Positions 4,154 through 64,000 of a DNA stretch of 64,000 bases are shown in pieces. Positions within the stretch are counted from its first letter, which is position 1. The number at the start of each line of letters is the position of its first letter. The notes under the pieces are model-generated. The model did no database searches and was not told the DNA's origin. It worked only from the letters and a program-made list of their open reading frames with translations. The position numbers and the translations under genes were made by a program. Source of the stretch: Escherichia coli (lineage in GTDB: Bacteria; Pseudomonadota; Gammaproteobacteria; Enterobacterales; Enterobacteriaceae); NCBI RefSeq assembly GCF_003018235.1, contig NZ_CP027437.1, one strand, 5' to 3'.

Positions 4154-4464
4154 GAAATGCGGTACTGCCCCGGAGAAATCCGGGGCTGTTTCAGTTATTG
4201 AGCTGCTTGTTGATTCTGATATGCAGTAAGGAAATGTTCCGGTTTTGCCACATCACTGTTTGACAATTCATCACTGTAGGCCAGTACTTCATAGATTAAT
4301 TTCCCACCACTATTGTTGAATTCCGAATTTCATCCTGTATGACAAAAGAATGGCTGTAGGGTGGGGAAAAAACACAAAGTAAACAATAATTGACGAATAT
4401 AGCGCCACGCTGTTCGCAACCTAACCAAACAGTCACTTTCGAGCAATTTTCCTTGAAAAAGAGG

Positions 4465-10787: not shown

Positions 10788-12326
10788 ATGGCTTTTGCCT
10801 CATTAATTGAACGCCAGCGCATTCGCCTGCTGCTGGCGTTATTATTCGGTGCCTGCGGAACGCTGGCCTTCTCTCCTTACGACGTCTGGCCTGCGGCGAT
10901 TATTTCGCTGATGGGGCTTCAGGCGCTGACCTTTAACCGCCGTCCACTCCAGTCTGCCGCTATTGGCTTTTGCTGGGGATTTGGCCTCTTTGGCAGCGGT
11001 ATTAACTGGGTCTATGTCAGCATCGCGACCTTTGGCGGAATGCCTGGCCCGGTTAACATCTTCCTGGTGGTACTGCTGGCGGCGTATTTGTCGCTGTATA
11101 CCGGATTATTTGCTGGCGTGCTGTCGCGTCTGTGGCCGAAAACCACCTGGCTGCGCGTGGCGATTGCCGCCCCTGCTCTCTGGCAAGTGACCGAGTTTCT
11201 GCGCGGTTGGGTGCTGACTGGTTTCCCGTGGTTACAGTTCGGCTATAGCCAGATTGATGGCCCGTTAAAAGGGCTGGCACCGATAATGGGCGTGGAAGCC
11301 ATTAACTTCCTGCTAATGATGGTTAGCGGCCTGCTGGCACTGGCGTTGGTTAAACGCAACTGGCGTCCGATGGTGGTGGCCGTCGTGCTGTTCGCCCTTC
11401 CCTTCCCGCTGCGTTACATCCAGTGGTTTACCCCGCAACCGGAGAAAACCATTCAGGTTTCGATGGTTCAGGGCGATATTCCGCAATCGCTGAAGTGGGA
11501 CGAAAGCCAGCTTCTTAATACGCTGAAAATTTATTACAACGCGACGGCACCGCTGATGGGCAAATCGTCGCTGATTATCTGGCCGGAGTCGGCGATAACC
11601 GATCTGGAAATTAATCAGCAACCGTTCCTCAAAGCACTGGACGGTGAGTTGCGTGATAAAGGTAGCTCGCTGGTAACCGGGATTGTCGACGCGCGTCTCA
11701 ATAAGCAGAACCGCTACGATACCTACAACACCATCATCACGCTGGGTAAAGGTGCACCGTACAGCTACGAATCAGCCGATCGCTATAACAAAAACCATCT
11801 GGTGCCGTTTGGCGAGTTTGTCCCGCTGGAGTCGATTCTGCGTCCGTTAGCGCCGTTCTTTGATCTGCCGATGTCGTCGTTCAGCCGTGGGCCATATATC
11901 CAGCCACCGCTGTCGGTAAACGGTATTGAGCTTACTGCGGCTATTTGCTACGAGATCATTCTTGGCGAGCAAGTGCGTGATAACTTCCGCCCGGATACCG
12001 ATTATCTGCTGACTATCTCCAACGATGCATGGTTTGGTAAGTCTATTGGTCCATGGCAGCACTTCCAGATGGCGCGAATGCGTGCGCTGGAGCTGGCGCG
12101 CCCGCTGCTACGCAGCACCAACAACGGCATTACGGCGGTGATTGGCCCGCAGGGTGAGATTCAGGCGATGATCCCGCAATTCACCCGCGAGGTGTTAACC
12201 ACTAACGTGACACCGACCACCGGACTCACACCGTACGCACGTACCGGCAACTGGCCGCTGTGGGTACTGACGGCACTGTTTGGTTTTGCTGCTGTGCTGA
12301 TGAGCCTGCGTCAACGACGTAAATAA
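10788..12326 (+). CDS. lnt: Apolipoprotein N-acyltransferase
   Basis: 512-aa ORF with N-terminal multi-TM region and C-terminal nitrilase-like domain. Confidence 0.95.
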
Positions 12327-12372
12327 TCCCTTCTTATCGTGCCGGAATACATCCCGTATTTCGGCACGCTCA

Positions 12373-12408
12373 CCGGATGCGGCATCAGTGCGTTATCCGG
12401 ATTACAAA
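12373..12408. repeat. REP-like palindromic element
   Basis: accggatgcggcatcagtgcgttatccggattac resembles the REP consensus GCCGGATGCGGCG...TTATCCGGCCTAC. Confidence 0.45.
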
Positions 12409-12722
12409 ATTCCCCTATCCAACTTTGGCACATCTATTGCTTTGTTATACAAGGCAAAGCTTGAACCAGCATCAGTACAACCCGGTTGCACCACAGCAAT
12501 CCACGGGTAGCACCAAAAGAGTGCATTTTAAGAATTTTGCTTCGGAATGGTGCGGCGCATCTCGCAAAAACAAACAATAAAACAGCAATATCTTTACATT
12601 TAGCCAAACTAAATGTTACCTAACAAGCACAACACTGCACAATAAAGTTGCAGATGATAACAACACAAACACTCACAACGGGTATCCATGCGTTCTTAAC
12701 GCAGAAGATAAAGGAGTTGGAT

Positions 12723-16057: not shown

Positions 16058-16993
16058 ATGGCACTGCCAATTCTGTTAGATTGCGACCCAGGTCATGATG
16101 ACGCTATCGCAATAGTTCTCGCCCTCGCCTCACCAGAGCTTGATGTCAAAGCAATTACGTCTTCCGCCGGAAACCAGACACCAGAAAAAACCTTACGCAA
16201 TGTTCTGCGTATGCTGACCTTGCTTAATCGCACCGATATTCCGGTGGCAGGCGGCGCGGTAAAACCGTTAATGCGTGAGTTGATTATCGCGGACAATGTG
16301 CACGGTGAAAGCGGTCTCGACGGCCCGGCATTACCGGAACCGACGTTCGCACCGCAAAACTGTACGGCGGTGGAGCTGATGGCGAAAACGCTGCGTGAAA
16401 GTGAGGAACCTGTCACGATTGTGTCTACCGGACCGCAAACTAACGTTGCCTTGCTGCTCAATAGCCATCCGGAACTGCATAGCAAAATCGCCCGTATCGT
16501 GATTATGGGCGGCGCAATGGGGCTTGGTAACTGGACGCCAGCCGCCGAGTTTAATATTTATGTTGACCCGGAAGCGGCAGAAATTGTTTTCCAGTCAGGG
16601 ATCCCGGTGGTGATGGCCGGTCTGGATGTTACTCATAAAGCGCAAATCCACGTTGAAGACACCGAGCGTTTCCGCGCGATTGGCAACCCTGTTTCAACCA
16701 TTGTTGCCGAACTGCTGGATTTCTTCCTCGAATATCATAAAGACGAAAAATGGGGTTTTGTCGGCGCACCGCTGCATGACCCATGCACCATCGCCTGGCT
16801 GTTGAAACCGGAGTTGTTTACCACTGTTGAGCGCTGGGTTGGCGTGGAAACACAAGGGAAATATACCCAGGGTATGACGGTTGTTGATTATTATTATCTG
16901 ACTGGCAATAAACCGAATGCCACTGTAATGGTCGATGTTGATCGTCAGGGCTTTGTTGATTTACTGGCTGATCGTCTGAAATTTTACGCTTAA
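16058..16993 (+). CDS. rihA: Pyrimidine-specific ribonucleoside hydrolase
   Basis: 311-aa protein [16 protein letters not shown] (nucleoside hydrolase DxDxxxDD motif); AAGGAG SD; track ORF 16025 is an extension. Confidence 0.93.
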
Positions 16994-16997
16994 TCAC

Positions 16998-17023
16998 TCG
17001 CCGGATGACATCACGCCATCCGG
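16998..17023. terminator. Bidirectional hairpin between convergent rihA and ybeL
   Basis: GCCGGATGACATCACGCCATCCGGC inverted repeat in the 44-bp spacer. Confidence 0.5.
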
Positions 17024-17037
17024 CACCACTCATTTCA

Positions 17038-17520
17038 TTACGGCTCGAACGGGCGTCTCTGGAACTGGTCATGACCACATTTCGGGCATAGCGTCAGCAC
17101 TTCCGGTGTATAGATCGGGAGATGGAAATGACATTTCTCGCAGACCAGATTACCCAGCCCTACCACTTCTCCGCTGTGATAAACCCCGTGATGATTGAGG
17201 TCCTGGAAAACTTCGCGCCATTCAAGCTGCGTTTTATCGGTGATGTCTGCCAGCTCCTGCCACAAGCTTTCTTTAATCACCCGCATAAAGACGCTGTCAG
17301 ACTCTTCTTTCAGGCTCTCTTCATAGCTCATGGCGAACTCTTCCAGGTCACGTCTGACAGCTCGCGTCAGCTCATCGACTTCGGTTCGCGTTAACTCCCC
17401 TGTTTTTATTACGCGCTCGCGCGCCTGTTCCACCAGTGCGTCGATATCACGTTCGCCATTGCGCAGGCGTTCGCTCAGTGACGCGACCAGTTCACGGTAA
17501 TATTGAGCAACCTTGTTCAT
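17038..17520 (-). CDS. ybeL: DUF1451 protein with C-terminal zinc-ribbon (CxxC...CxxC)
   Basis: 160-aa ORF MNKVAQYYRELVASLSERLRNGERDIDALVEQ...; cysteine pairs CEKCHFH and CPKCGH. Confidence 0.85.
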   Translation of the reverse strand: MNKVAQYYRELVASLSERLRNGERDIDALVEQARERVIKTGELTRTEVDELTRAVRRDLEEFAMSYEESLKEESDSVFMRVIKESLWQELADITDKTQLEWREVFQDLNHHGVYHSGEVVGLGNLVCEKCHFHLPIYTPEVLTLCPKCGHDQFQRRPFEP

Positions 17521-51459: not shown

Positions 51460-51629
51460 GTTTATCTCCTGGGCTTTAAACATCATCATGCAAGCGGCCT
51501 CTGCGGCTACCTGGATGCAGCTTGCATCATGGTGCGGGGAAGAAAATCGGGTGCCGCAGCACCCGAAGAATTAGGTGAATTTCCGAAGTATTTCGCGCCG
51601 GAGTTGGTAGCGCGAAAGACGAAGGAAAT

Positions 51630-52193
51630 TTAGATTTTACCAACCAGGTCCAGAGACGGAGCCAGAGTTGCTTCACCTTCTTTCCATTTAGCCGGGCAAA
51701 CTTCACCTGGGTGAGAAGCTACGTACTGTGCTGCTTTGATTTTACGCAGCAGGTCAGACGCGTCACGGCCAATGCCTTCAGCGGTAACTTCGATTGCCTG
51801 GATGATACCCTGCGGGTCAACAACGAAGGTCGCACGGTCAGCCAGACCTTCATCTTCACGCATGTTGTCGAAGTTACGGGTCAGGGCGCCAGTCGGGTCG
51901 CCGATCATCGCATATTTGATTTTAGCGATGGTTTCAGAGCTGCTGTGCCATGCTTTGTGGGTGAAGTGAGTATCGGTAGATACTGCGTATACGTCTACGC
52001 CCAGTTTCTGCAGTTCTTCGTAGTGGTCAGCAACGTCACCCAGTTCGGTCGGGCATACGAAAGTAAAGTCAGCCGGGTAGAAGAAGAAGACGCTCCAGCG
52101 GCCTTCGGTATCTTTTTCGGTGATTTCGATGAATTCGCCGTTTTTGAATGCCTGGTTTTTAAAAGGTTTAATTTTGGTGTTAATCAAGGACAT
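51630..52193 (-). CDS. ahpC: Alkyl hydroperoxide reductase subunit C (2-Cys peroxiredoxin)
   Basis: 187-aa ORF with peroxidatic Cys in FTFVCPTEL and resolving Cys near C-terminus. Confidence 0.96.
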
Positions 52194-52494
52194 CTATACT
52201 TCCTCCGTGTTTTCGATGAGATGTAAGGTAACCAATTTTTGCCGATTCGGCTAATGCGTTTCCATTATCAAATCGATAAGTTTTACCTTACAACCTTCGT
52301 AAGACAACTTTGTGAACTTTGCACCGCCAGCGGCGATAAAAAGTAAAATGGCCCCCTTTCCAGGTGACCGTGTAATCTGAACTACCCTTTGGTATCTTCA
52401 GCGCCTGCCTGCAGGCTGAGGTGTTGCCCTTACAAATGCAACAACGACATGGATTACAACACCCTCATAAACAAAGGGCAATCACCTGATCTAA

Positions 52495-52530
52495 GCTCTT
52501 ACCTATGACAGTGATAGGTTATGCCTTTTA
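52495..52530. promoter_or_regulatory. Candidate OxyR-type operator in the ahpC / dsbG divergent region
   Basis: CTAT-N7-ATAG core (ACCTATGACAGTGATAGGTTATG) matches the centre of the OxyR tetrad consensus; exact site not verified. Confidence 0.35.
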
Positions 52531-52564
52531 CCCGACTTTTGCACTGACTGAAAAGGACAAATTA

Positions 52565-53311
52565 ATGTTAAAAAAGATACTTTTACTGGCTCTGCTTCCT
52601 GCAATCGCCTTCGCAGAGGAACTTCCTGATCCAGTAAAAGCGATTGAAAAACAGGGCATTACAATCATCAAAACGTTCGATGCTCCCGGAGGAATGAAAG
52701 GTTATCTCGGCAAGTATCAGGATATGGGCGTCACCATCTACCTGACTCCAGATGGTAAGCACGCTATCTCCGGTTACATGTACAACGAGAAAGGTGAAAA
52801 CCTGAGTAACACACTTATCGAAAAAGAAATTTACGCACCAGCCGGGCGCGAAATGTGGCAACGGATGGAACAATCCCACTGGCTCCTCGACGGTAAAAAA
52901 GACGCGCCGGTCATTGTCTACGTCTTCGCCGATCCGTTCTGCCCATATTGTAAACAGTTCTGGCAGCAGGCTCGCCCGTGGGTTGATTCTGGCAAAGTGC
53001 AATTAAGAACATTGTTGGTTGGCGTTATCAAGCCAGAAAGCCCGGCGACAGCAGCGGCAATTCTTGCCTCCAAAGATCCCGCAAAAACCTGGCAAGAATA
53101 TGAAGCCTCTGGTGGCAAGCTTAAGCTAAACGTGCCTGCAAACGTAAGTACAGAGCAAATGAAAGTGTTAAGCGACAACGAGAAACTGATGGACGATCTG
53201 GGGGCAAATGTCACACCAGCTATCTACTACATGAGTAAGGAAAATACGCTGCAACAGGCCGTGGGGTTGCCCGATCAGAAAACGCTTAATATCATTATGG
53301 GGAATAAATAA
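52565..53311 (+). CDS. dsbG: Periplasmic thiol:disulfide oxidoreductase DsbG
   Basis: 248-aa protein from [17 protein letters not shown] (signal peptide) with CPYC active site. Confidence 0.92.
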
Positions 53312-53518
53312 AAGATAATTCATGGATGGTTGAAATATATCCCTGTTTTTCAACCATCCTAAAAAAGCATGAATTGCTCGCTCTGCCCTAAGTGGCTGTG
53401 CTATTTTAGAAAAACTTAATTCTGAGTTAAGCAAAAAAATATAATACAAATAAATACAACAGCAACATTATTGAACAAATGAATGATTTATAGAAGAGAT
53501 AATATAACGGAGTATGTT

Positions 53519-54421
53519 ATGGCGAATCTTTATGACCTAAAAAAATTTGATCTGAATTTACTGGTCATATTTGAGTGCATTTATCAACACCTCAGCATTA
53601 GCAAAGCAGCAGAATCATTATATATAACGCCCTCTGCTGTTAGTCAGTCGTTACAACGTTTACGCGCGCAATTTAATGACCCGTTATTCATCCGCTCAGG
53701 GAAAGGTATCGCGCCGACTACGACAGGGTTAAACCTGCATCACCATCTTGAGAAGAATCTCCGAGGCCTTGAACAAACGATCAATATTGTTAATAAGTCT
53801 GAGCTAAAGAAAAATTTTATTATCTACGGTCCTCAGCTTATTTCTTGTACTAATAACAACATGCTAATCTGCTGTCTTAGACAAGATACTTCAATCGATA
53901 TAGAATGCCATGACATACTGCTTTCAGCTGAAAATGCCGAAGAACTGTTGGTTCAACGCAAAACTGACCTGGCAATTACACTACAACCAGTAATTAGCCG
54001 CTCTGTCATCTGCATGCCGTTACATACTATTCGCAATTCTCTTATATGTAGCAATAAACATCCTCGTATTACCGATACCAGTAACTATGAACAAATTATC
54101 GCCGAAGAATTCACCTTGTTGATATCTAAATCAGCAGGGATTGACGAAATTCAAATGGACATAGATGAACGTTTTATGAACCGTAAAGTTTCATTTCGCA
54201 GTTCTTCTTTGTTGACGATAATTAATAGTATTTCTGTTACTGACTTATTGGGCATTGTGCCCACCGAACTGTACGATTTACATCGTGATTTTTTGAAGTT
54301 ACAAGAGATAAAACTGGAACGACCACTTCCTGCGGTTAAACTTTATATTTCCTATAACAAGGCTTCGTTGAACAACCTTGTCTTCTCACGATTCATAGAT
54401 CGTTTAAATGATAGCTTCTGA
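53519..54421 (+). CDS. ybdO: LysR-family transcriptional regulator (AT-rich gene)
   Basis: 300-aa protein MANLYDLKKFDLNLLVIFECIY... with LysR HTH (TPSAVSQSLQRLR). Confidence 0.88.
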   Translation: MANLYDLKKFDLNLLVIFECIYQHLSISKAAESLYITPSAVSQSLQRLRAQFNDPLFIRSGKGIAPTTTGLNLHHHLEKNLRGLEQTINIVNKSELKKNFIIYGPQLISCTNNNMLICCLRQDTSIDIECHDILLSAENAEELLVQRKTDLAITLQPVISRSVICMPLHTIRNSLICSNKHPRITDTSNYEQIIAEEFTLLISKSAGIDEIQMDIDERFMNRKVSFRSSSLLTIINSISVTDLLGIVPTELYDLHRDFLKLQEIKLERPLPAVKLYISYNKASLNNLVFSRFIDRLNDSF

Positions 54422-54460
54422 TTTATTACCACGGATAAATGTTATATTACGCATCAATTG

Positions 54461-54475
54461 ATTCATTGTGTGAAT
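54461..54475. promoter_or_regulatory. Candidate LysR-type T-N11-A box upstream of ybdN
   Basis: ATTCATTGTGTGAAT dyad (TTCA-N5-TGAA) about 95 bp upstream of ybdN start, adjacent to LysR gene ybdO. Confidence 0.3.
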
Positions 54476-54567
54476 ATAAAATAATGTGCTCTATCTTGCT
54501 TCGTTTACCCTATAATTAACGGATTCATCTCACGAGTCACCCCGTAACGTTCAGAGAGCGTTTTCAG

Positions 54568-55788
54568 ATGTCTATTTATAAAATCCCGCTTCCACTGAAT
54601 ATTCTGGAAGCTGCAAAAGAACGTATTACCTGGACACTTAACACCCTACCCCGCGTCTGCGTTTCTTTTTCGGGTGGTAAAGATTCCGGATTAATGCTGC
54701 ATCTGACCGCCGAACTTGCCCGACAAATGGGCAAAAAAATTTGTGTTTTATTTATCGACTGGGAAGCTCAGTTCTCTTGCACCATTAACTATGTTCAGTC
54801 TCTGCGCGAGTTGTACACCGATGTCATCGAAGAGTTTTACTGGATTGCGCTCCCGCTTACAACGCAAAATTCCCTATCACAATACCAACCCGAATGGCAG
54901 TGCTGGGAACCTGATGTCGAATGGGTACGTCAGCCCCCGCAAGATGCGATAACCGATCCTGACTTTTTCTCCTTTTACCAGCCTGGCATGACCTTCGAAC
55001 AATTTGTGCGTGAGTTTGCCGAATGGTTTTCGCAAAAACGTCCGGCGGCGATGATGATCGGCATCCGTGCGGATGAGTCCTACAACCGTTTTGTCGCCAT
55101 CGCCAGTTTAAATAAACAACGTTTTGCCGATGATAAGCCCTGGACTACTGCCGCACCAGGCGGTCATAGCTGGTACATTTACCCCATCTACGACTGGAAA
55201 GTCGCTGATATCTGGACCTGGTATGCTAGCCATCAACGCCTCTGTAACCCACTGTATAATATAATGTATCAGGCAGGCGTTCCTCTACGTCATATGCGAA
55301 TTTGCGAACCTTTTGGTCCGGAACAACGGCAAGGATTATGGCTCTATCACGTTATCGAACCGGATCGCTGGGCTGCTATGTGCGCACGAGTCAGCGGGGT
55401 AAAAAGTGGCGGCATTTACGCCGGACATGACAACCATTTTTATGGTCATCGGAAAATCCTCAAGCCCGAACATTTAGACTGGCAGGAGTATGCATTATTG
55501 CTACTCAACAGCATGCCGGAGAAAACAGCTGAGCATTATCGCAATAAAATCGCCATTTATTTGCACTGGTATCAGAAAAAAGGCATCGAGGTTCCACAAA
55601 CCCAGCAAGGGGACATTGGCGCGAAAGATATCCCCTCCTGGCGGCGAATATGCAAAGTTTTACTCAATAACGATTACTGGTGTCGGGCATTATCATTTAG
55701 CCCGACCAAAGCGAAGAACTATCAGCGTTATAACGAACGAATAAAAGGAAAACGTCAGGAATGGGGGATACTATGCAACAACGATTAA
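54568..55788 (+). CDS. ybdN: PAPS-reductase-like PP-loop ATP pyrophosphatase family protein (IbrA-like)
   Basis: 406-aa ORF with PP-loop motif SFSGGKDSG near N-terminus. Confidence 0.85.
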   Translation: MSIYKIPLPLNILEAAKERITWTLNTLPRVCVSFSGGKDSGLMLHLTAELARQMGKKICVLFIDWEAQFSCTINYVQSLRELYTDVIEEFYWIALPLTTQNSLSQYQPEWQCWEPDVEWVRQPPQDAITDPDFFSFYQPGMTFEQFVREFAEWFSQKRPAAMMIGIRADESYNRFVAIASLNKQRFADDKPWTTAAPGGHSWYIYPIYDWKVADIWTWYASHQRLCNPLYNIMYQAGVPLRHMRICEPFGPEQRQGLWLYHVIEPDRWAAMCARVSGVKSGGIYAGHDNHFYGHRKILKPEHLDWQEYALLLLNSMPEKTAEHYRNKIAIYLHWYQKKGIEVPQTQQGDIGAKDIPSWRRICKVLLNNDYWCRALSFSPTKAKNYQRYNERIKGKRQEWGILCNND

Positions 55789-56390
55789 CGCAGGATTTAA
55801 CCCAATTTCTCGCCAGCTTGCCGGAAGACGATCGCATCAAAGCGATTAATGAAATCCGCATGGCGATCCATCAGGTTAGCCCCTTTCGAGAAGAGCCAGT
55901 GGATTGCGTTCTGTGGGTTAAAAACAGCCAACTTATGCCTAATGATTACAACCCAAACAACGTGGCACCACCCGAAAAAAAACTGCTGAAAAAATCCATT
56001 GAAATAGATGGTTTTACCCAACCCATTGTGGTCACGCATACGGATAAAAATGCCCTGGAAATCGTGGATGGTTTTCACCGCCATGAAATTGGTAAAGGCT
56101 CATCATCGTTAAAATTACGCTTAAAAGGTTATTTGCCGGTGACCTGTCTGGAAGGTACGCGTAATCAACGCATCGCCGCGACTATTCGTCATAACCGCGC
56201 TCGTGGACGTCACCAAATCACTGCCATGTCAGAAATCGTCCGTGAACTCAGCCAGTTGGGATGGGACGATAATAAAATTGGCAAAGAGCTGGGAATGGAC
56301 AGCGACGAAGTGCTACGCCTGAAGCAAATTAACGGCCTGCAAGAGTTGTTTGCCGACCGTCAATATTCCCGCGCCTGGACGGTTAAATAG
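55761..56390 (+). CDS. ybdM: ParB/sulfiredoxin-like domain protein (IbrB-like)
   Basis: 209-aa ORF with DGFHRH motif; 28-bp overlap with ybdN. Confidence 0.85.
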   Translation: MGDTMQQRLTQDLTQFLASLPEDDRIKAINEIRMAIHQVSPFREEPVDCVLWVKNSQLMPNDYNPNNVAPPEKKLLKKSIEIDGFTQPIVVTHTDKNALEIVDGFHRHEIGKGSSSLKLRLKGYLPVTCLEGTRNQRIAATIRHNRARGRHQITAMSEIVRELSQLGWDDNKIGKELGMDSDEVLRLKQINGLQELFADRQYSRAWTVK

Positions 56391-57551
56391 CTAAAGCTGG
56401 CGCAGGCGTTCAGCTGCTGCCAGCAACGTCGATTCCTTCTTGGCAAAACAGAGACGAATCAGTTTATGTGGGAAGGGATCGGCGCAAAACACCGATAGCG
56501 GAATCGCCGCTACGCCGTGCTCCTGCGTCAGCCACTGGCAAAACTCAACGTCATCCAGGGTAGATACGGCGCTGTAATCCACCAGCAAAAAGTATGTACC
56601 TTCGCACGGTAAAATCTCCAGCCGGCTTTCATTTAAGGCATTCACCAGAATATCGCGCTTCTGGCGATAAAAGTCCGGTAACGCAAGATAATGCTCAGGT
56701 TCTGCACGTAGCATATCGGCAAGCGCCAGCTGTGCCGGGGTATTCACCGAAAAGGTCAGATACTGATGTACCTTGCGAATTTCGGCACTGATGGGCGCTG
56801 GCGCAACGCAATAACCCACTTTCCAGCCGGTCATATGATAGGTCTTGCCAAACGATGACACCGCCACCGCCCGCTCACGCAGCTGCGGATGCGCCTGCAC
56901 GCTGGCATGGCCCTGTTGTGAAAAGTTGATGTGCTCGTAAACTTCATCGCTAATGACAAAAATCTCGTGCCCGGCAATTGCCTGCCACAAAGCGGCGAAA
57001 TCAGCCTGCTGCCAGACAGTTGCACTGGGGTTATGCGGGGTGTTGAGGATCACCAGTCGGGTGCGCTCGCTTAACAATGCGGCAAATTCCTGCCAGTCCA
57101 CGCGAAAATGCGGTGGTTGCAGTGCAATACGTTTCACTATTCCCCCCGAAAGCGCGATGGCGGGCGCGTAACTGTCATAGCTGGGATCAAAGCAGATCAC
57201 TTCATCACCATTGCGCACCAATGCGGTAATCGCTGCATATAACGCTTCCGTCGCCCCTGCCGTTACGGTGATATCACTATCGGCATCCGGTTGATAGCCA
57301 TACAGACGTTCCGTTTTCTGAGCAATCGCCTCGCGCAAGGCCTGCACGCCAGTCATAGGCGCGTATTGGTTTGCCCCCTGGTCAACATGGTACGCCAGCC
57401 GCTCCTGCAAATAGCGCGGACCATCAAAATCAGGAAAGCCTTGCGAAAGGTTAATCGCCTGGTGTTGCTGCGCCAGCGCGCTCATCTGGGTGAAAATAGT
57501 GGTGCCAAGTTGTGGAAGTTTGCTTTGTGGAATCAGAGGGTTATTTGTCAT
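56391..57551 (-). CDS. ybdL: PLP-dependent aminotransferase (methionine aminotransferase family)
   Basis: 386-aa ORF with fold-type I aminotransferase features and PLP-lysine context SSFGKTYHMTGWKVG. Confidence 0.9.
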   Translation of the reverse strand: MTNNPLIPQSKLPQLGTTIFTQMSALAQQHQAINLSQGFPDFDGPRYLQERLAYHVDQGANQYAPMTGVQALREAIAQKTERLYGYQPDADSDITVTAGATEALYAAITALVRNGDEVICFDPSYDSYAPAIALSGGIVKRIALQPPHFRVDWQEFAALLSERTRLVILNTPHNPSATVWQQADFAALWQAIAGHEIFVISDEVYEHINFSQQGHASVQAHPQLRERAVAVSSFGKTYHMTGWKVGYCVAPAPISAEIRKVHQYLTFSVNTPAQLALADMLRAEPEHYLALPDFYRQKRDILVNALNESRLEILPCEGTYFLLVDYSAVSTLDDVEFCQWLTQEHGVAAIPLSVFCADPFPHKLIRLCFAKKESTLLAAAERLRQL

Positions 57552-57658
57552 TTTTTATTGTGCCTGACGAAGTTGTGTTGAAGGCACTATAACACGATGC
57601 TAGTATTTGGCGATCAAGACGTTTAGATGTCTAAATAAAACAATAAGGACAACACAAC

Positions 57659-58747
57659 ATGCCTCACAATCCTATCCGCGTGGTCGTCGGCCCGGCTAAC
57701 TACTTTTCACATCCCGGCAGTCTCAATCACCTGCACGATTTTTTCACTGATGAACAACTTTCTCGCGCGGTGTGGATCTACGGCGAACGCGCCATTGCTG
57801 CGGCGCAAACAAAACTTCCGCCAGCGTTTGAACTGCCAGGGGCAAAGCATATTTTGTTTCGCGGCCATTGCAGCGAAAGCGATGTACAACAACTGGCGGC
57901 TGAGTCCGGTGACGATCGCAGCGTGGTGATTGGCGTCGGCGGCGGCGCACTGCTCGACACCGCGAAAGCCCTCGCCCGCCGTCTCGGTCTGCCGTTTGTT
58001 GCCGTTCCGACGATCGCCGCCACCTGCGCCGCCTGGACACCGCTCTCCGTCTGGTATAACGATGCCGGACAGGCGCTGCATTATGAGATTTTCGACGACG
58101 CCAATTTTATGGTGCTGGTGGAGCCAGAGATTATCCTCAATGCGCCGCAAGAATATCTGCTGGCGGGGATCGGTGACACGCTGGCGAAATGGTATGAAGC
58201 GGTGGTGCTGGCCCCGCAACCAGAAACGTTGCCGCTAACCGTGCGACTGGGGATCAATAATGCGCAGGCCATTCGCGACGTCTTGTTAAACAGTAGCGAA
58301 CAGGCGCTTGCCGATCAGCAAAATCACCAGTTAACGCAATCATTTTGCGATGTGGTGGATGCGATTATCGCCGGAGGTGGAATGGTCGGTGGTCTGGGCG
58401 ATCGTTTTACGCGTGTGGCGGCGGCCCATGCCGTGCATAACGGTCTGACCGTGCTGCCGCAAACCGAGAAGTTTCTTCACGGCACCAAAGTCGCCTACGG
58501 AATTCTGGTGCAAAGCGCCTTGCTGGGTCAGGATGATGTGCTGGCGCAATTAACAGAGGCGTATCAGCGTTTTCATCTGCCGACTACGCTGGCGGAGCTG
58601 GAAGTGGATATCAATAATCAGGCGGAGATCGACAAAGTGATTGCCCACACCTTGCGCCCGGTGGAATCCATTCATTACCTGCCGGTCACGCTGACACCGG
58701 ATACGTTGCGTGCAGCGTTCGAAAAAGTGGAATCGTTTAAAGCCTGA
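57659..58747 (+). CDS. ybdH: Iron-containing alcohol/glycerol dehydrogenase-family oxidoreductase
   Basis: 362-aa ORF with GVGGGALLDTAKA NAD-binding motif. Confidence 0.88.
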   Translation: MPHNPIRVVVGPANYFSHPGSLNHLHDFFTDEQLSRAVWIYGERAIAAAQTKLPPAFELPGAKHILFRGHCSESDVQQLAAESGDDRSVVIGVGGGALLDTAKALARRLGLPFVAVPTIAATCAAWTPLSVWYNDAGQALHYEIFDDANFMVLVEPEIILNAPQEYLLAGIGDTLAKWYEAVVLAPQPETLPLTVRLGINNAQAIRDVLLNSSEQALADQQNHQLTQSFCDVVDAIIAGGGMVGGLGDRFTRVAAAHAVHNGLTVLPQTEKFLHGTKVAYGILVQSALLGQDDVLAQLTEAYQRFHLPTTLAELEVDINNQAEIDKVIAHTLRPVESIHYLPVTLTPDTLRAAFEKVESFKA

Positions 58748-58756
58748 CGTACATAT

Positions 58757-58954
58757 TTAGCAGCAGCGCGCGCCGCCTTTTCCACCGTAGCGCGCGTCCT
58801 GCCGCTCACGGAAAAACTCCTCGTAGGTCATCGGCGTTTGATCGGGATGGTTAACCCGCATATGTTCGACATAGTTGTCGTAATCAGGCATACCAATCAT
58901 CAGTTTCGCCGCCTGACCTAAATATTTTCCGGCTTTTGCCAGTGAATCAAACAT
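58757..58954 (-). CDS. ybdD: Small DUF466-family protein downstream of cstA
   Basis: 65-aa [61 protein letters not shown]... Confidence 0.88.
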
Positions 58955-59066
58955 CTAAACCTCCGGTAATACAAATGCCCTCCTGAATTAAGAGGGCTTA
59001 ATTGCTATCAACACGCTCGGGCTGAGAGTAAGGGGAACGCTCAGCACATCCCCCCTCACTCTGACT

Positions 59067-61039
59067 TTAGTGCGCGCCTTTCGCCTGCGCCACGATCTCT
59101 TCGACATTTTCCGGCATCGGCTCATATGGCGTTTCTTTCGCCGTTGGCTTCGGCTCTTTCAATGCCGCCAGTGCCGTCTTAATCGAGAACAGCGCCAGAA
59201 CCACCACGACCACCATAAAGAAGATGGTTAACCCGGCATCAAGACGGTTGTTGAATACCAGTTGCGCCAGCTGTGACTCAGTATACTGCGACGGAATATT
59301 GCCGCTGTCGATCATTGCCTGGAACTTATTAGCAATCGCCTGGAAGCCGACTTTCGCATCCGGGCTAAACGCTTTCTGCCAGCCTGCGGTCAGGGTACAA
59401 ATCAGCAGCCAGGCCGTTGGTACCAGCGCCACCCAGGCGTAACGTTGACGTTTCATTTTGAACAGCACCACAGCACAGAGCATCAGCGCCATCCCTGCCA
59501 GCATCTGGTTGGCAATACCAAACAGCGGCCACAAGGTGTTAATACCGCCCAGCGGATCGACCACACCCTGATGGAGGAAGTAGCCCCACGCCAGTACGCA
59601 CAGCGCCGTTGCCAGCAGGTTAGCAGGCAGTGAATCGGTCCGTTTCAGGCCCGGAGACACCACGCCCAGCAGATCCTGCAACATAAAGCGCGCAGCACGC
59701 GTACCTGCATCCACCGCCGTCAGAATAAACAGTGCTTCAAACAAAATGGCGAAGTGATACCAGAACGCCACATCCATCATGCCGCCCAGCGCGCCGTGCA
59801 GAATGTAGGCCATCCCCACCGCCAGCGTCGGCGCACCGCCCGCACGGGAAATGATCGACTGTTCACCCACTTCGCTGGCAATCTGGTTGAGCGTATCTGG
59901 TGTAATGCTAAATCCCCAGCTACTCACCACCTGCGCGGCAGAAGCAACCACATCCGCCGTACCTGCCGGAGCCAGCACCGCCATCGGGCTGTTCATAGCG
60001 AAGTACACACCCGGATCGATGATACAGGCGGAAACCAGCGCCATAATCGCTACGAAGGATTCCATTAACATCCCGCCGTAGCCGATAAAACACGCCTGCC
60101 CTTCGTTCGCCAGCATCTTCGGCGTGGTACCGGAAGAGATCAGCGCATGGAAGCCAGACACCGCGCCACAAGCGATGGTGATAAACAGGAACGGGAACAG
60201 GTTACCGGTCCATACCGGGCCTGTGCCATCGACAAATTTAGTTAGCGCAGGCATGGTCAGCGTCGGGCGCATAATCAAAATGCCTACCGCCAGACCGACG
60301 ATAGTCCCGATTTTCAGGAAGGTTGAGAGGTAGTCACGCGGAGCCAGCAGCAGCCACACCGGCAGCACCGCCGCCACAAAACCGTAACCCACCAGCATCC
60401 AGGTCAGCTGCACGCCGGTAAAGTCAAAGTACGGTGCCCAGGTCGGGCTTTCTGCCACCCAGCCGCCAGAGATAATGGCGAAAATCAGGAACACCAGACC
60501 AATCACCGACACTTCGCCAATACGCCCCGGACGCAGATAACGCAGGTAGATCCCCATAAACAGCGCCAGCGGAATGGTGAACGCAACGGTATACGTTCCC
60601 CACGGGCTATGGGTCAGGGCTTTCACCACGATCATCGCCAGCACGGCAAGGATAATGACCATGATCATAAAGCAGGCCACCAGCGCAATCACCCCGGCAG
60701 GTAACCCATTTGCGCCGCCAGCACCGGCCCCACCAGCGGGCCTGCTCCGGCAATGGCCGCAAAATGGTGACCGAACAGCACTTTTTTGTCCGTCGGCACA
60801 TAGTCCAGCCCGTCGTTATGGCGCACCGCTGGCGTCATACGCGTCGGGTCAACCGCCAGCACATTTTTGGCGATATACAGGCCATAAAAACGGTAAGCGA
60901 TCAGATAGATACAGACCGACGCCACCACAATCCACAGCGCGTTGATCTGTTCCCCACGATTTAAAGCAATGTATCCCAGAGCAAATGCTCCCATTACAGA
61001 GAGCACTGTCCAGACGAGGTATTTCCCTGATTTGTTCAT
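59067..61039 (-). pseudogene. cstA: cstA (CstA-family peptide/pyruvate transporter) split into two reading frames
   Basis: N-terminal ORF 60689..61039 (116 aa, ends ...AAQMGYLPG then TGA) and C-terminal ORF 59067..60692 (541 aa, begins GVIALVACFMIMVIIL) are in different frames and overlap by 4 bp; combined length is roughly 44 residues short of the ~700-aa full-length protein I recall. Confidence 0.6.
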
Positions 61040-61158
61040 AGTTGTTATCCGTGTGCGTGTCCATAGAGATGTTACATTTTGTTTCTATAACATCTTTGCG
61101 CAATTTAACAACACAGCAACCATGTAAATCGGAGTTGAAACCAATATTTAACTTAACA

Positions 61159-61176
61159 ATGTTAACTCGATCACTC
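61159..61176. promoter_or_regulatory. Candidate CRP-like site upstream of cstA
   Basis: Minus-strand GTGATCGAGTTAACA resembles TGTGA-N6-TCACA, about 120 bp upstream of the cstA start. Confidence 0.3.
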
Positions 61177-61219
61177 CGTTAACCGAGTTTTCCTGCAATC
61201 TCATTTAATTCTGTCGGGT

Positions 61220-62381
<1,162 letters not shown>

Positions 62382-62382
<1 letters not shown>

Positions 62383-63239
62383 TATTTCACCTCGCGGGAA
62401 AGTAGCTTCCACCAGGCGTCGATGGTCGGGTTTTTCGCCAGCATGACAAAGTCGATATCGCCATGCACTTTGCGCCAGCGCGCCGCCAGCGCCATCATCC
62501 GCACCGAATCCAGACCGTAGTCGATCAGGTTGTCGTCATCGAACGGTTCATCGGACTCGTCCAGCAACGGCAGGATCACCTCACGCAGCGCCGCTTTGCT
62601 GGCGGGGATAGGTGCTGGCAGTAATTCTTCGGTCATCACCACCCGGCCAGAACGTCCGGCCACATATTTCAGCGACATCAAATGCTCGTCACGGCTGAAA
62701 TCGGCCAGCGCATCTGCCACCATAAACGGTTTAATATCGCGCATAAATGCGTCGGTTGCGGTGGTCATACAGCCAATGTGGGCATATACCCCGGTAATAA
62801 TCAGCTGGTTACGTCCACTCTCTTTCAGCATTTGCTCCAGCGGGGAACGATGAAACGCGCTATAGCGCCACTTCACCAGCACCGTGTCGTCGGCATCTGG
62901 CGTCAGGCTATCCACCACCTTTTGCTGTTCCGGCGAACGGGTCAGGCCAGGCCCCCACATATCATTCAACAGCGCCCGATCTTCATCGCTCTGCTCTTTC
63001 GGCTGGGCGGTGTAATAAACCGGGATATTGTGCTGTTTGCAGTAGTCGCGTAGTGCCGCAATATTCGCGATCACCTGCTCCATCATCGGGCAGTTCTCGC
63101 CCCAGAAGCTGACAAAATAGTCCTGCATATCATGGATTAACAACGCGGCACGTTGCGGTTCAAAGGCCCAGTCGACTTTATTCTGCGGAATATCGTGAGA
63201 CTCCGGCAGTGCGTAAGCCTGTAATTTTGGAATAGCCAT
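62382..63239 (-). CDS. entB: Isochorismatase / aryl carrier protein
   Basis: 285-aa ORF with N-terminal isochorismatase domain and C-terminal ArCP (LIDYGLDSVRMMAL phosphopantetheine site). Confidence 0.94.
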
Positions 63240-63252
63240 CGTGTTCTCTCCT

Positions 63253-64000
63253 TCAGGCTGATGCGCGTGACGCCAGCCACTGACGTAATTGTTTTTTATC
63301 GACTTTCCCGACCGCCGTCAGCGGAAGTGAATCCACACACTCCACGCGATCCGGTAATTTAAATTCGGCAATACCCTGTTCACGCAGGAAACGACGCACC
63401 TGCACCGCGCGTAGAGGCTCTTTTACCACCAGATAAGCACAGCTTTTTTCGCCCATCAGCTCATCTTCCATGCTCACCAGTGCGGCGTAGATCACCGCCG
63501 GATGGCGCAGCAGCAGGTTTTCGATCTCTTCGGCAGCGATCTTCTCGCCGCCACGGTTGATCTGATCTTTCTCGCGCCCCTGCACGGTGATGTACCCCTC
63601 TGGATCAATAGAGATCAGATCGCCGGAACAGTAAAAACCGTTGGCATCAAAGGCGCTGGCATTGTGCTGCGGGCTTTTGTAATAGCCACGGAAGGTGTAC
63701 GGACCGCGCGTCATCAGGCGTCCAACTTCTCCTTGCGGTAGTGGATTTCCTTCAGCATCGGCAACCCACACTTCATCGTCCGGACACATTGGATAGCCCT
63801 GGGTATGGATAATTTTCTCCGCGCTATCATCAAGACGGGTGTAGTTCACCAGCCCTTCCGCCATGCCAAACACCTGCTGCAACTGGCAGCCAATCTCAGC
63901 GGGAATACGCGCCGCAAGCGTGGCAGAAAGACGTGCGCCGCCGACCTGTAACAGTTTTAGCGAGGCAAGCTGCGCCTGGCTTTCGCCTTCGGTCAGCGCC
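63253..64000 (-). CDS. entE: 2,3-dihydroxybenzoate-AMP ligase, C-terminal part (gene continues beyond window end)
   Basis: ORF 63253..63882 plus open frame to window edge; adenylation-domain C-terminal motifs ([24 protein letters not shown]). Confidence 0.88.

Follow-up and report, generated by a model that had tools for sequence, protein, structure and literature searches.

The cstA gene of this Escherichia coli strain is very probably a recently formed pseudogene, produced by a 133-bp internal deletion that would have followed misalignment of two copies of the heptanucleotide GCCGGGG. In the window, by which we mean the whole stretch of 64,000 nucleotides that was analysed, the gene is split into two ORFs, as the original prediction had proposed. 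Both ORFs were confirmed at the coordinates in Table 1 from the ORF list and from their matches to the same protein family model.

Table 1 Features of the disrupted cstA locus, in window coordinates.
Feature	Coordinates	Strand	Description	Source
cstA 5' fragment	60689..61039	-	116 codons, ATG start, ends ...QMGYLPG followed by the frameshift-made TGA; NF011590 positions 1-116 of 701, 255 bits; Pfam PF02554 positions 1-84	ORF list
cstA 3' fragment	59067..60692	-	541 codons, GTG start, reads (G)VIALVACF...; CstA residues 161-701; NF011590 positions 161-701, 1206 bits; Pfam PF02554 positions 130-560	ORF list
Deletion junction	60692..60698	-	Single remaining GCCGGGG, the last G of which opens the GTG of the 3' ORF	
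TGA of the 5' ORF	60691..60689	-	Directly after the junction repeat	
entH-cstA intergenic region	61040..61219	-	cstA promoter and leader; inside the stretch that aligns to 042 without large breaks	
ybdD	58757..58954	-	Intact, 65 aa, 100% identical to 042 YbdD; own strong Shine-Dalgarno (duplex -10.2 kcal/mol)	

The 5' ORF encodes CstA residues 1-116, among them the conserved GHHFAAIAGAGP motif, and the 541-codon ORF is read in a frame one base upstream of that of the 116-codon ORF. The GTG that opens the second ORF and the TGA that closes the first share bases as GTGA. The fragments were compared with NF011590, the NCBIfam equivalog model for the pyruvate/proton symporter CstA (701 positions), and with Pfam PF02554 (560 positions). 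The 3' piece alone passes the NF011590 cut-off of 1188 bits, and the gene order, entH-cstA-ybdD-hcxA, is that of E. coli SC418 and 042, with intact neighbours. Sequence and synteny thus both identify the locus as cstA. However, the two ORFs do not share a frame, neither covers profile positions 117-160, and no single ORF of ~701 aa is present. On these grounds the locus is a cstA pseudogene, and it should be annotated as such (internal 133-bp deletion, frameshift) rather than as two genes. On the promoter side, positions 60681..64000 align to 042 as one blastn HSP with 98.1% identity and three 1-nt gaps; cstA is regulated by CRP, Fis, and CsrA (PMC7730263).

Alignment to intact alleles replaces the sizes suggested at the outset, ~130 bp lost from a protein of ~700 aa, with exact values. 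Intact E. coli CstA (WP_001043157.1; 042, SC418; TC 2.A.114) has 701 aa and is encoded at the same locus. The window allele keeps residues 1-116 and 161-701 but differs in lacking exactly 133 bp, i.e., codons 117-160 and one further base, and in having two frames with no ORF that spans the profile. The loss of whole codons plus one nucleotide places the downstream part in another frame, which agrees with the one-base shift that had been predicted, and mapping onto the full-length protein identifies residues 117-160 as the ones absent. In the alignments to intact alleles, that of SC418 included, there is a single 133-bp gap and no second insertion or deletion within the 400-bp stretch around the junction. 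A match to cstA was found in 5,419 of the 5,426 complete RefSeq E. coli genomes; among the matches listed, the gene aligned in two pieces that cover 2,834 bp in the record versus 2,701 bp in the window.

The breakpoints are resolved by the 042 allele. The window is identical to 042 cstA at 344 of 344 nt before the junction and at 600 of 600 nt after it, the latter being the first 600 nt of the 3' fragment, so 042 cstA can be used as the ancestral allele. GCCGGGG occurs in 042 cstA at nt 342, 364, and 475, and in the window the left flank of the first copy is joined to the right flank of the third, 133 bp apart, giving the junction sequence TACCTGCCGGGGTGATTGCGCTGG. The prediction of a deletion between CCGGGG direct repeats was therefore borne out and slightly understated, the true repeat, found at nt 342 and nt 475, being the 7-bp GCCGGGG. 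Both flanks align without interruption up to the junction, which contains no filler, foreign, or mobile-element DNA.

A perfect repeat at both breakpoints, one copy of which is kept, together with a short span and no filler, is the classic signature of slipped mispairing or microhomology-mediated deletion. Deletions between short direct repeats reportedly received their classic description in E. coli lacI. The cstA deletion is like these events in that both ancestral breakpoints carry a perfect 7-bp repeat, one copy remains, the span is 133 bp, and nothing was inserted; it does not differ from them in kind, and there is no hairpin between the repeats here. We infer that the two GCCGGGG copies misaligned during replication or repair, which would have removed one copy and all of the DNA between them, and that translation from the native ATG would now stop at the TGA after residue 116. 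Short repeats are common in cstA, with 58 pairs of 7 bp or more no further than 200 bp apart, so no special hotspot is needed and GCCGGGG is a plausible substrate. The locus provides a clean, fully resolved case of a 7-bp direct-repeat deletion with an allele identical on both flanks at hand. The repeat length at these breakpoints varies by lineage; in other lineages such as SC418 the corresponding sites read CCAGGG and GCTGGGG.

Two other routes to the lesion were considered and rejected. Hairpin-assisted slippage was ruled out because folds of the deleted DNA were no better than those of shuffled sequences on either strand (z = +1.36 and +1.95), and thus no hairpin that would bring the repeats together was found. 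For disruption by an insertion sequence, or a decaying genome of the Shigella type, the window contains no repeats of at least 200 bp, and its two 406-aa ORFs encode NagC and YbdN rather than transposases.

The deletion allele was sought widely and is private to one strain or clone. None of the 5,426 complete E. coli genomes contains the junction as one contiguous match, and the best matches to a 91-bp junction probe in these genomes are still two pieces that lie 133 bp apart. A 24-nt junction-specific string gave no matches in 241 million metagenome records; as a control, the same string matches the window once (60680..60703) and, among the fetched loci, only two that are derived from Logan. 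The exact 541-aa product occurs in only two contigs of the public assembly index, the 5,012,557-bp NCBI chromosome and a Logan contig from SRR8930575. The nearest complete genomes are 99.2% identical over 24 kb with cstA as the sole break, and none is closer over the last 24 kb. The search also covered single-frame CstA proteins of ~657 aa with the same junction, and the 5,426 complete E. coli genomes contain none. A literature search on cstA pseudogenes in E. coli and on this deletion allele returned nothing relevant. The flanks match those of 042 exactly, and neither cstA fragment has acquired another stop or frameshift; the event is thus probably recent. The proposal of a recent inactivation is consistent with this pattern.

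The short N-terminal product is a poor guide to the distribution of the allele. In the assembly index, 196 blocks list the exact 116-aa product, and as a count of carriers this number is misleading because the loci examined arise by loss of a single G or by insertion (locus L008), not by the 133-bp deletion; carriers were counted instead by the 541-aa product and the junction string. At most of the loci examined, one G has been lost from the run CCGGGGATG (or CCAGGGATG), which likewise reads ...LPG-TGA. These single-G losses (loci L002, L004-L007, and L009-L011) lie around locus position 4345, which corresponds to window positions 60692-60696. Such alleles (e.g., L002, L004, L005, and L011) give the same 116-aa N-terminal product ending in LPG and a stop, but unlike the 133-bp deletion allele they keep all 701 codons (116 + 585 aa). 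They are probably long-read base-calling errors because most of them sit in assemblies with fragmented neighbour genes, and some could be real. Locus L008 (positions 4345-4400; ENA ERZ28624925 metagenome, scaffold_120) has an otherwise full-length cstA with a 52-bp insertion at the same GCCGGGG site. The insert, bordered by GCCGGGG on both sides, holds reverse complements of two 24-nt stretches found in intact cstA (nt 96-119 and nt 603-626); a template-switch event or a chimeric assembly could account for it.

The deletion falls within the conserved core of the protein. CstA is an inner-membrane pyruvate/H+ symporter with 18 predicted TM helices (PMC7730263). Within the lost peptide, MIWLLAGVVLAGAVQDFMVLFV-STRRDGRSLGELVKEEMGPTAG, a single hydrophobic core at approximately residues 120-131 precedes a positively charged loop, and the peptide corresponds to match positions 85-129 of the 560 in the Pfam CstA profile, inside the conserved core. 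By the positive-inside rule, it is predicted to comprise the fourth TM helix, running from the periplasm to the cytoplasm, and a cytoplasmic loop. Translation from the native start is predicted to yield only a 116-residue fragment with three helices. Because the lost helix and loop belong to the conserved core, the gene is most likely non-functional, and no product of the locus would be expected to act as an 18-helix pyruvate/H+ symporter. A search of the PDB by sequence returned no solved structure of a CstA-family protein, and loss of function is therefore deduced from sequence only.

Pyruvate uptake in E. coli is redundant, and BtsT and YhjX provide alternatives to CstA (PMC7730263). BtsT (YjiY), a high-affinity pyruvate/H+ symporter, is a paralogue in the CstA family with 61% identity, 18 TM helices, and an overlapping role (PMC7730263); unlike cstA, its gene lies elsewhere in the genome, outside the window. 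The strain would be predicted to have no CstA-dependent pyruvate uptake and probably relies on BtsT and YhjX, both of which are encoded outside the window. A lower sensitivity to toxic pyruvate analogues is also predicted while the inducible system is off.

The gene for the partner protein, ybdD, had been described as intact downstream of the break, and this holds for its full length. CstA and YbdD behave as one transport unit, in that single and double knockouts share a phenotype, and loss of either protein protects against 3-fluoropyruvate (PMC5847655). YbdD scores 70 bits against the NCBIfam 'KCU-star family selenoprotein' model, below the cut-off of 85. The protein ends in ...GGARCC and so resembles a Cys-Cys variant of a family whose members elsewhere terminate in Cys-Sec. 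The cstA-ybdD spacer (58955-59066) is 112 bp long here and in SC418 versus 181 bp in 042, and ybdD is closely preceded by a stem-loop, GCCCTCTTAATTCAGGAGGGC.

We weighed two alternatives that concern the origin of the lesion. One is that the organism still has the 133 bp and that assembly collapse removed them, a fallback already named when the split was first described. The G run at codons 115-117 is a site where base-calling tends to fail: single-G losses, which give the same 116-aa product, are frequent there in other assemblies, and those assemblies also show many frameshifted neighbour genes. A loss of 133 bp is not a homopolymer error, however, and repeats of 7 bp are much shorter than the k-mers used by assemblers. 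Contig SRR8930575_60, a 45-kb contig from the independent Logan assembly of SRA run SRR8930575, has the identical junction and matches the window at every one of the 14,934 bp that the two share, junction included. Moreover, among the 62 genes of 042 with a counterpart in the window, only cstA is broken, and the other 61 have their full length and show neither gaps nor stops; a flag on citR in this comparison is a paralogue artefact, and the gene is called intact (300 aa). An artefact is thus exceedingly improbable, and we conclude from the two assemblies that the deletion exists in the sequenced DNA, with the proviso that the Logan contig and the deposited genome may share one DNA preparation. 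It may have arisen in the sequenced laboratory culture rather than in the natural isolate. The other alternative accepts the deletion as real and attributes it to positive selection, for example by a toxic compound taken up by CstA. Deletion of cstA does shield K-12 from the toxic analogue 3-fluoropyruvate (PMC5847655), and the same site has other lesions in other assemblies. Against this, the present allele occurs in one strain only, and most of the other lesions are in visibly error-prone assemblies; selection therefore seems unlikely as an explanation.

In a further alternative, the locus has kept a useful product, either a two-piece CstA made through a restart at GTGA or a 657-aa fusion without residues 117-160 made through a -1 slip. 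The overlap of stop and start would permit termination-reinitiation, and next to the UGA the P-site tRNA-Gly could re-pair one base back on G-GGG, fusing the frames. Shine-Dalgarno pairing at the GTG (-3.1 kcal/mol, 10-nt spacing) is weak but no weaker than at the native cstA start (-3.3 kcal/mol), and a separate C-terminal piece would be predicted by the positive-inside rule to have the next helix in its native orientation. In the in-frame fusion, by contrast, the 14 helices that follow the deletion would have inverted topology, and every candidate product lacks the helix and loop at match positions 85-129 of the CstA profile. The junction was made by a strain-private deletion, so the recoding site is not conserved, and the downstream RNA shows no stimulatory structure (z = -0.31); a programmed frameshift was ruled out on these two counts. 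A simple consensus scan, which is weak evidence, found no internal promoter-like site for the 3' ORF on the coding strand upstream of it, and this candidate was set aside as well. RNA folding, Shine-Dalgarno pairing, conservation, and the promoter scan gave no sign of recoding or of a split protein that works, and we regard a useful product of the locus as most improbable. A composite reading of the sequence, in which a GTGA restart or a one-base slip would give a two-piece or Δ117-160 CstA with some transport or YbdD-dependent activity, or in which the loss of CstA would have been positively selected, is very unlikely.

The preferred reading is therefore the one given at the outset, a recent internal deletion between short direct repeats that leaves cstA one base out of frame, with three refinements of the original prediction: the length of 133 bp, the 7-bp repeat GCCGGGG, and the loss of residues 117-160. 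The function and the partner of cstA are well described, as are the gene itself and the mutational mechanism, and the case is one of ordinary gene decay that matters little outside a single strain.

The comparison with 042 revealed other differences in the window. At 17000-17036, between rihA (16058..16990) and ybeL (17041..17520), the ~7.8-kb ybeQ-ybeR-djlB-ybeT-ybeU-djlC-hscC block of 042 is wholly missing, and at 12310-12479, between lnt and gltI, a ~2-kb rhomboid-family protease gene of 042 is missing. Identity to 042 is mosaic across 51610-64000: 99.92% over 51610-58970, 99.1% over 59046-60702, a segment that includes the 042-identical 600 nt after the junction, and 98.1% over 60681-64000, which comprises the 5' part of cstA (with its 344 nt identical to 042) and entH, entA, and entB. 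This mosaic pattern suggests recombination boundaries near cstA.
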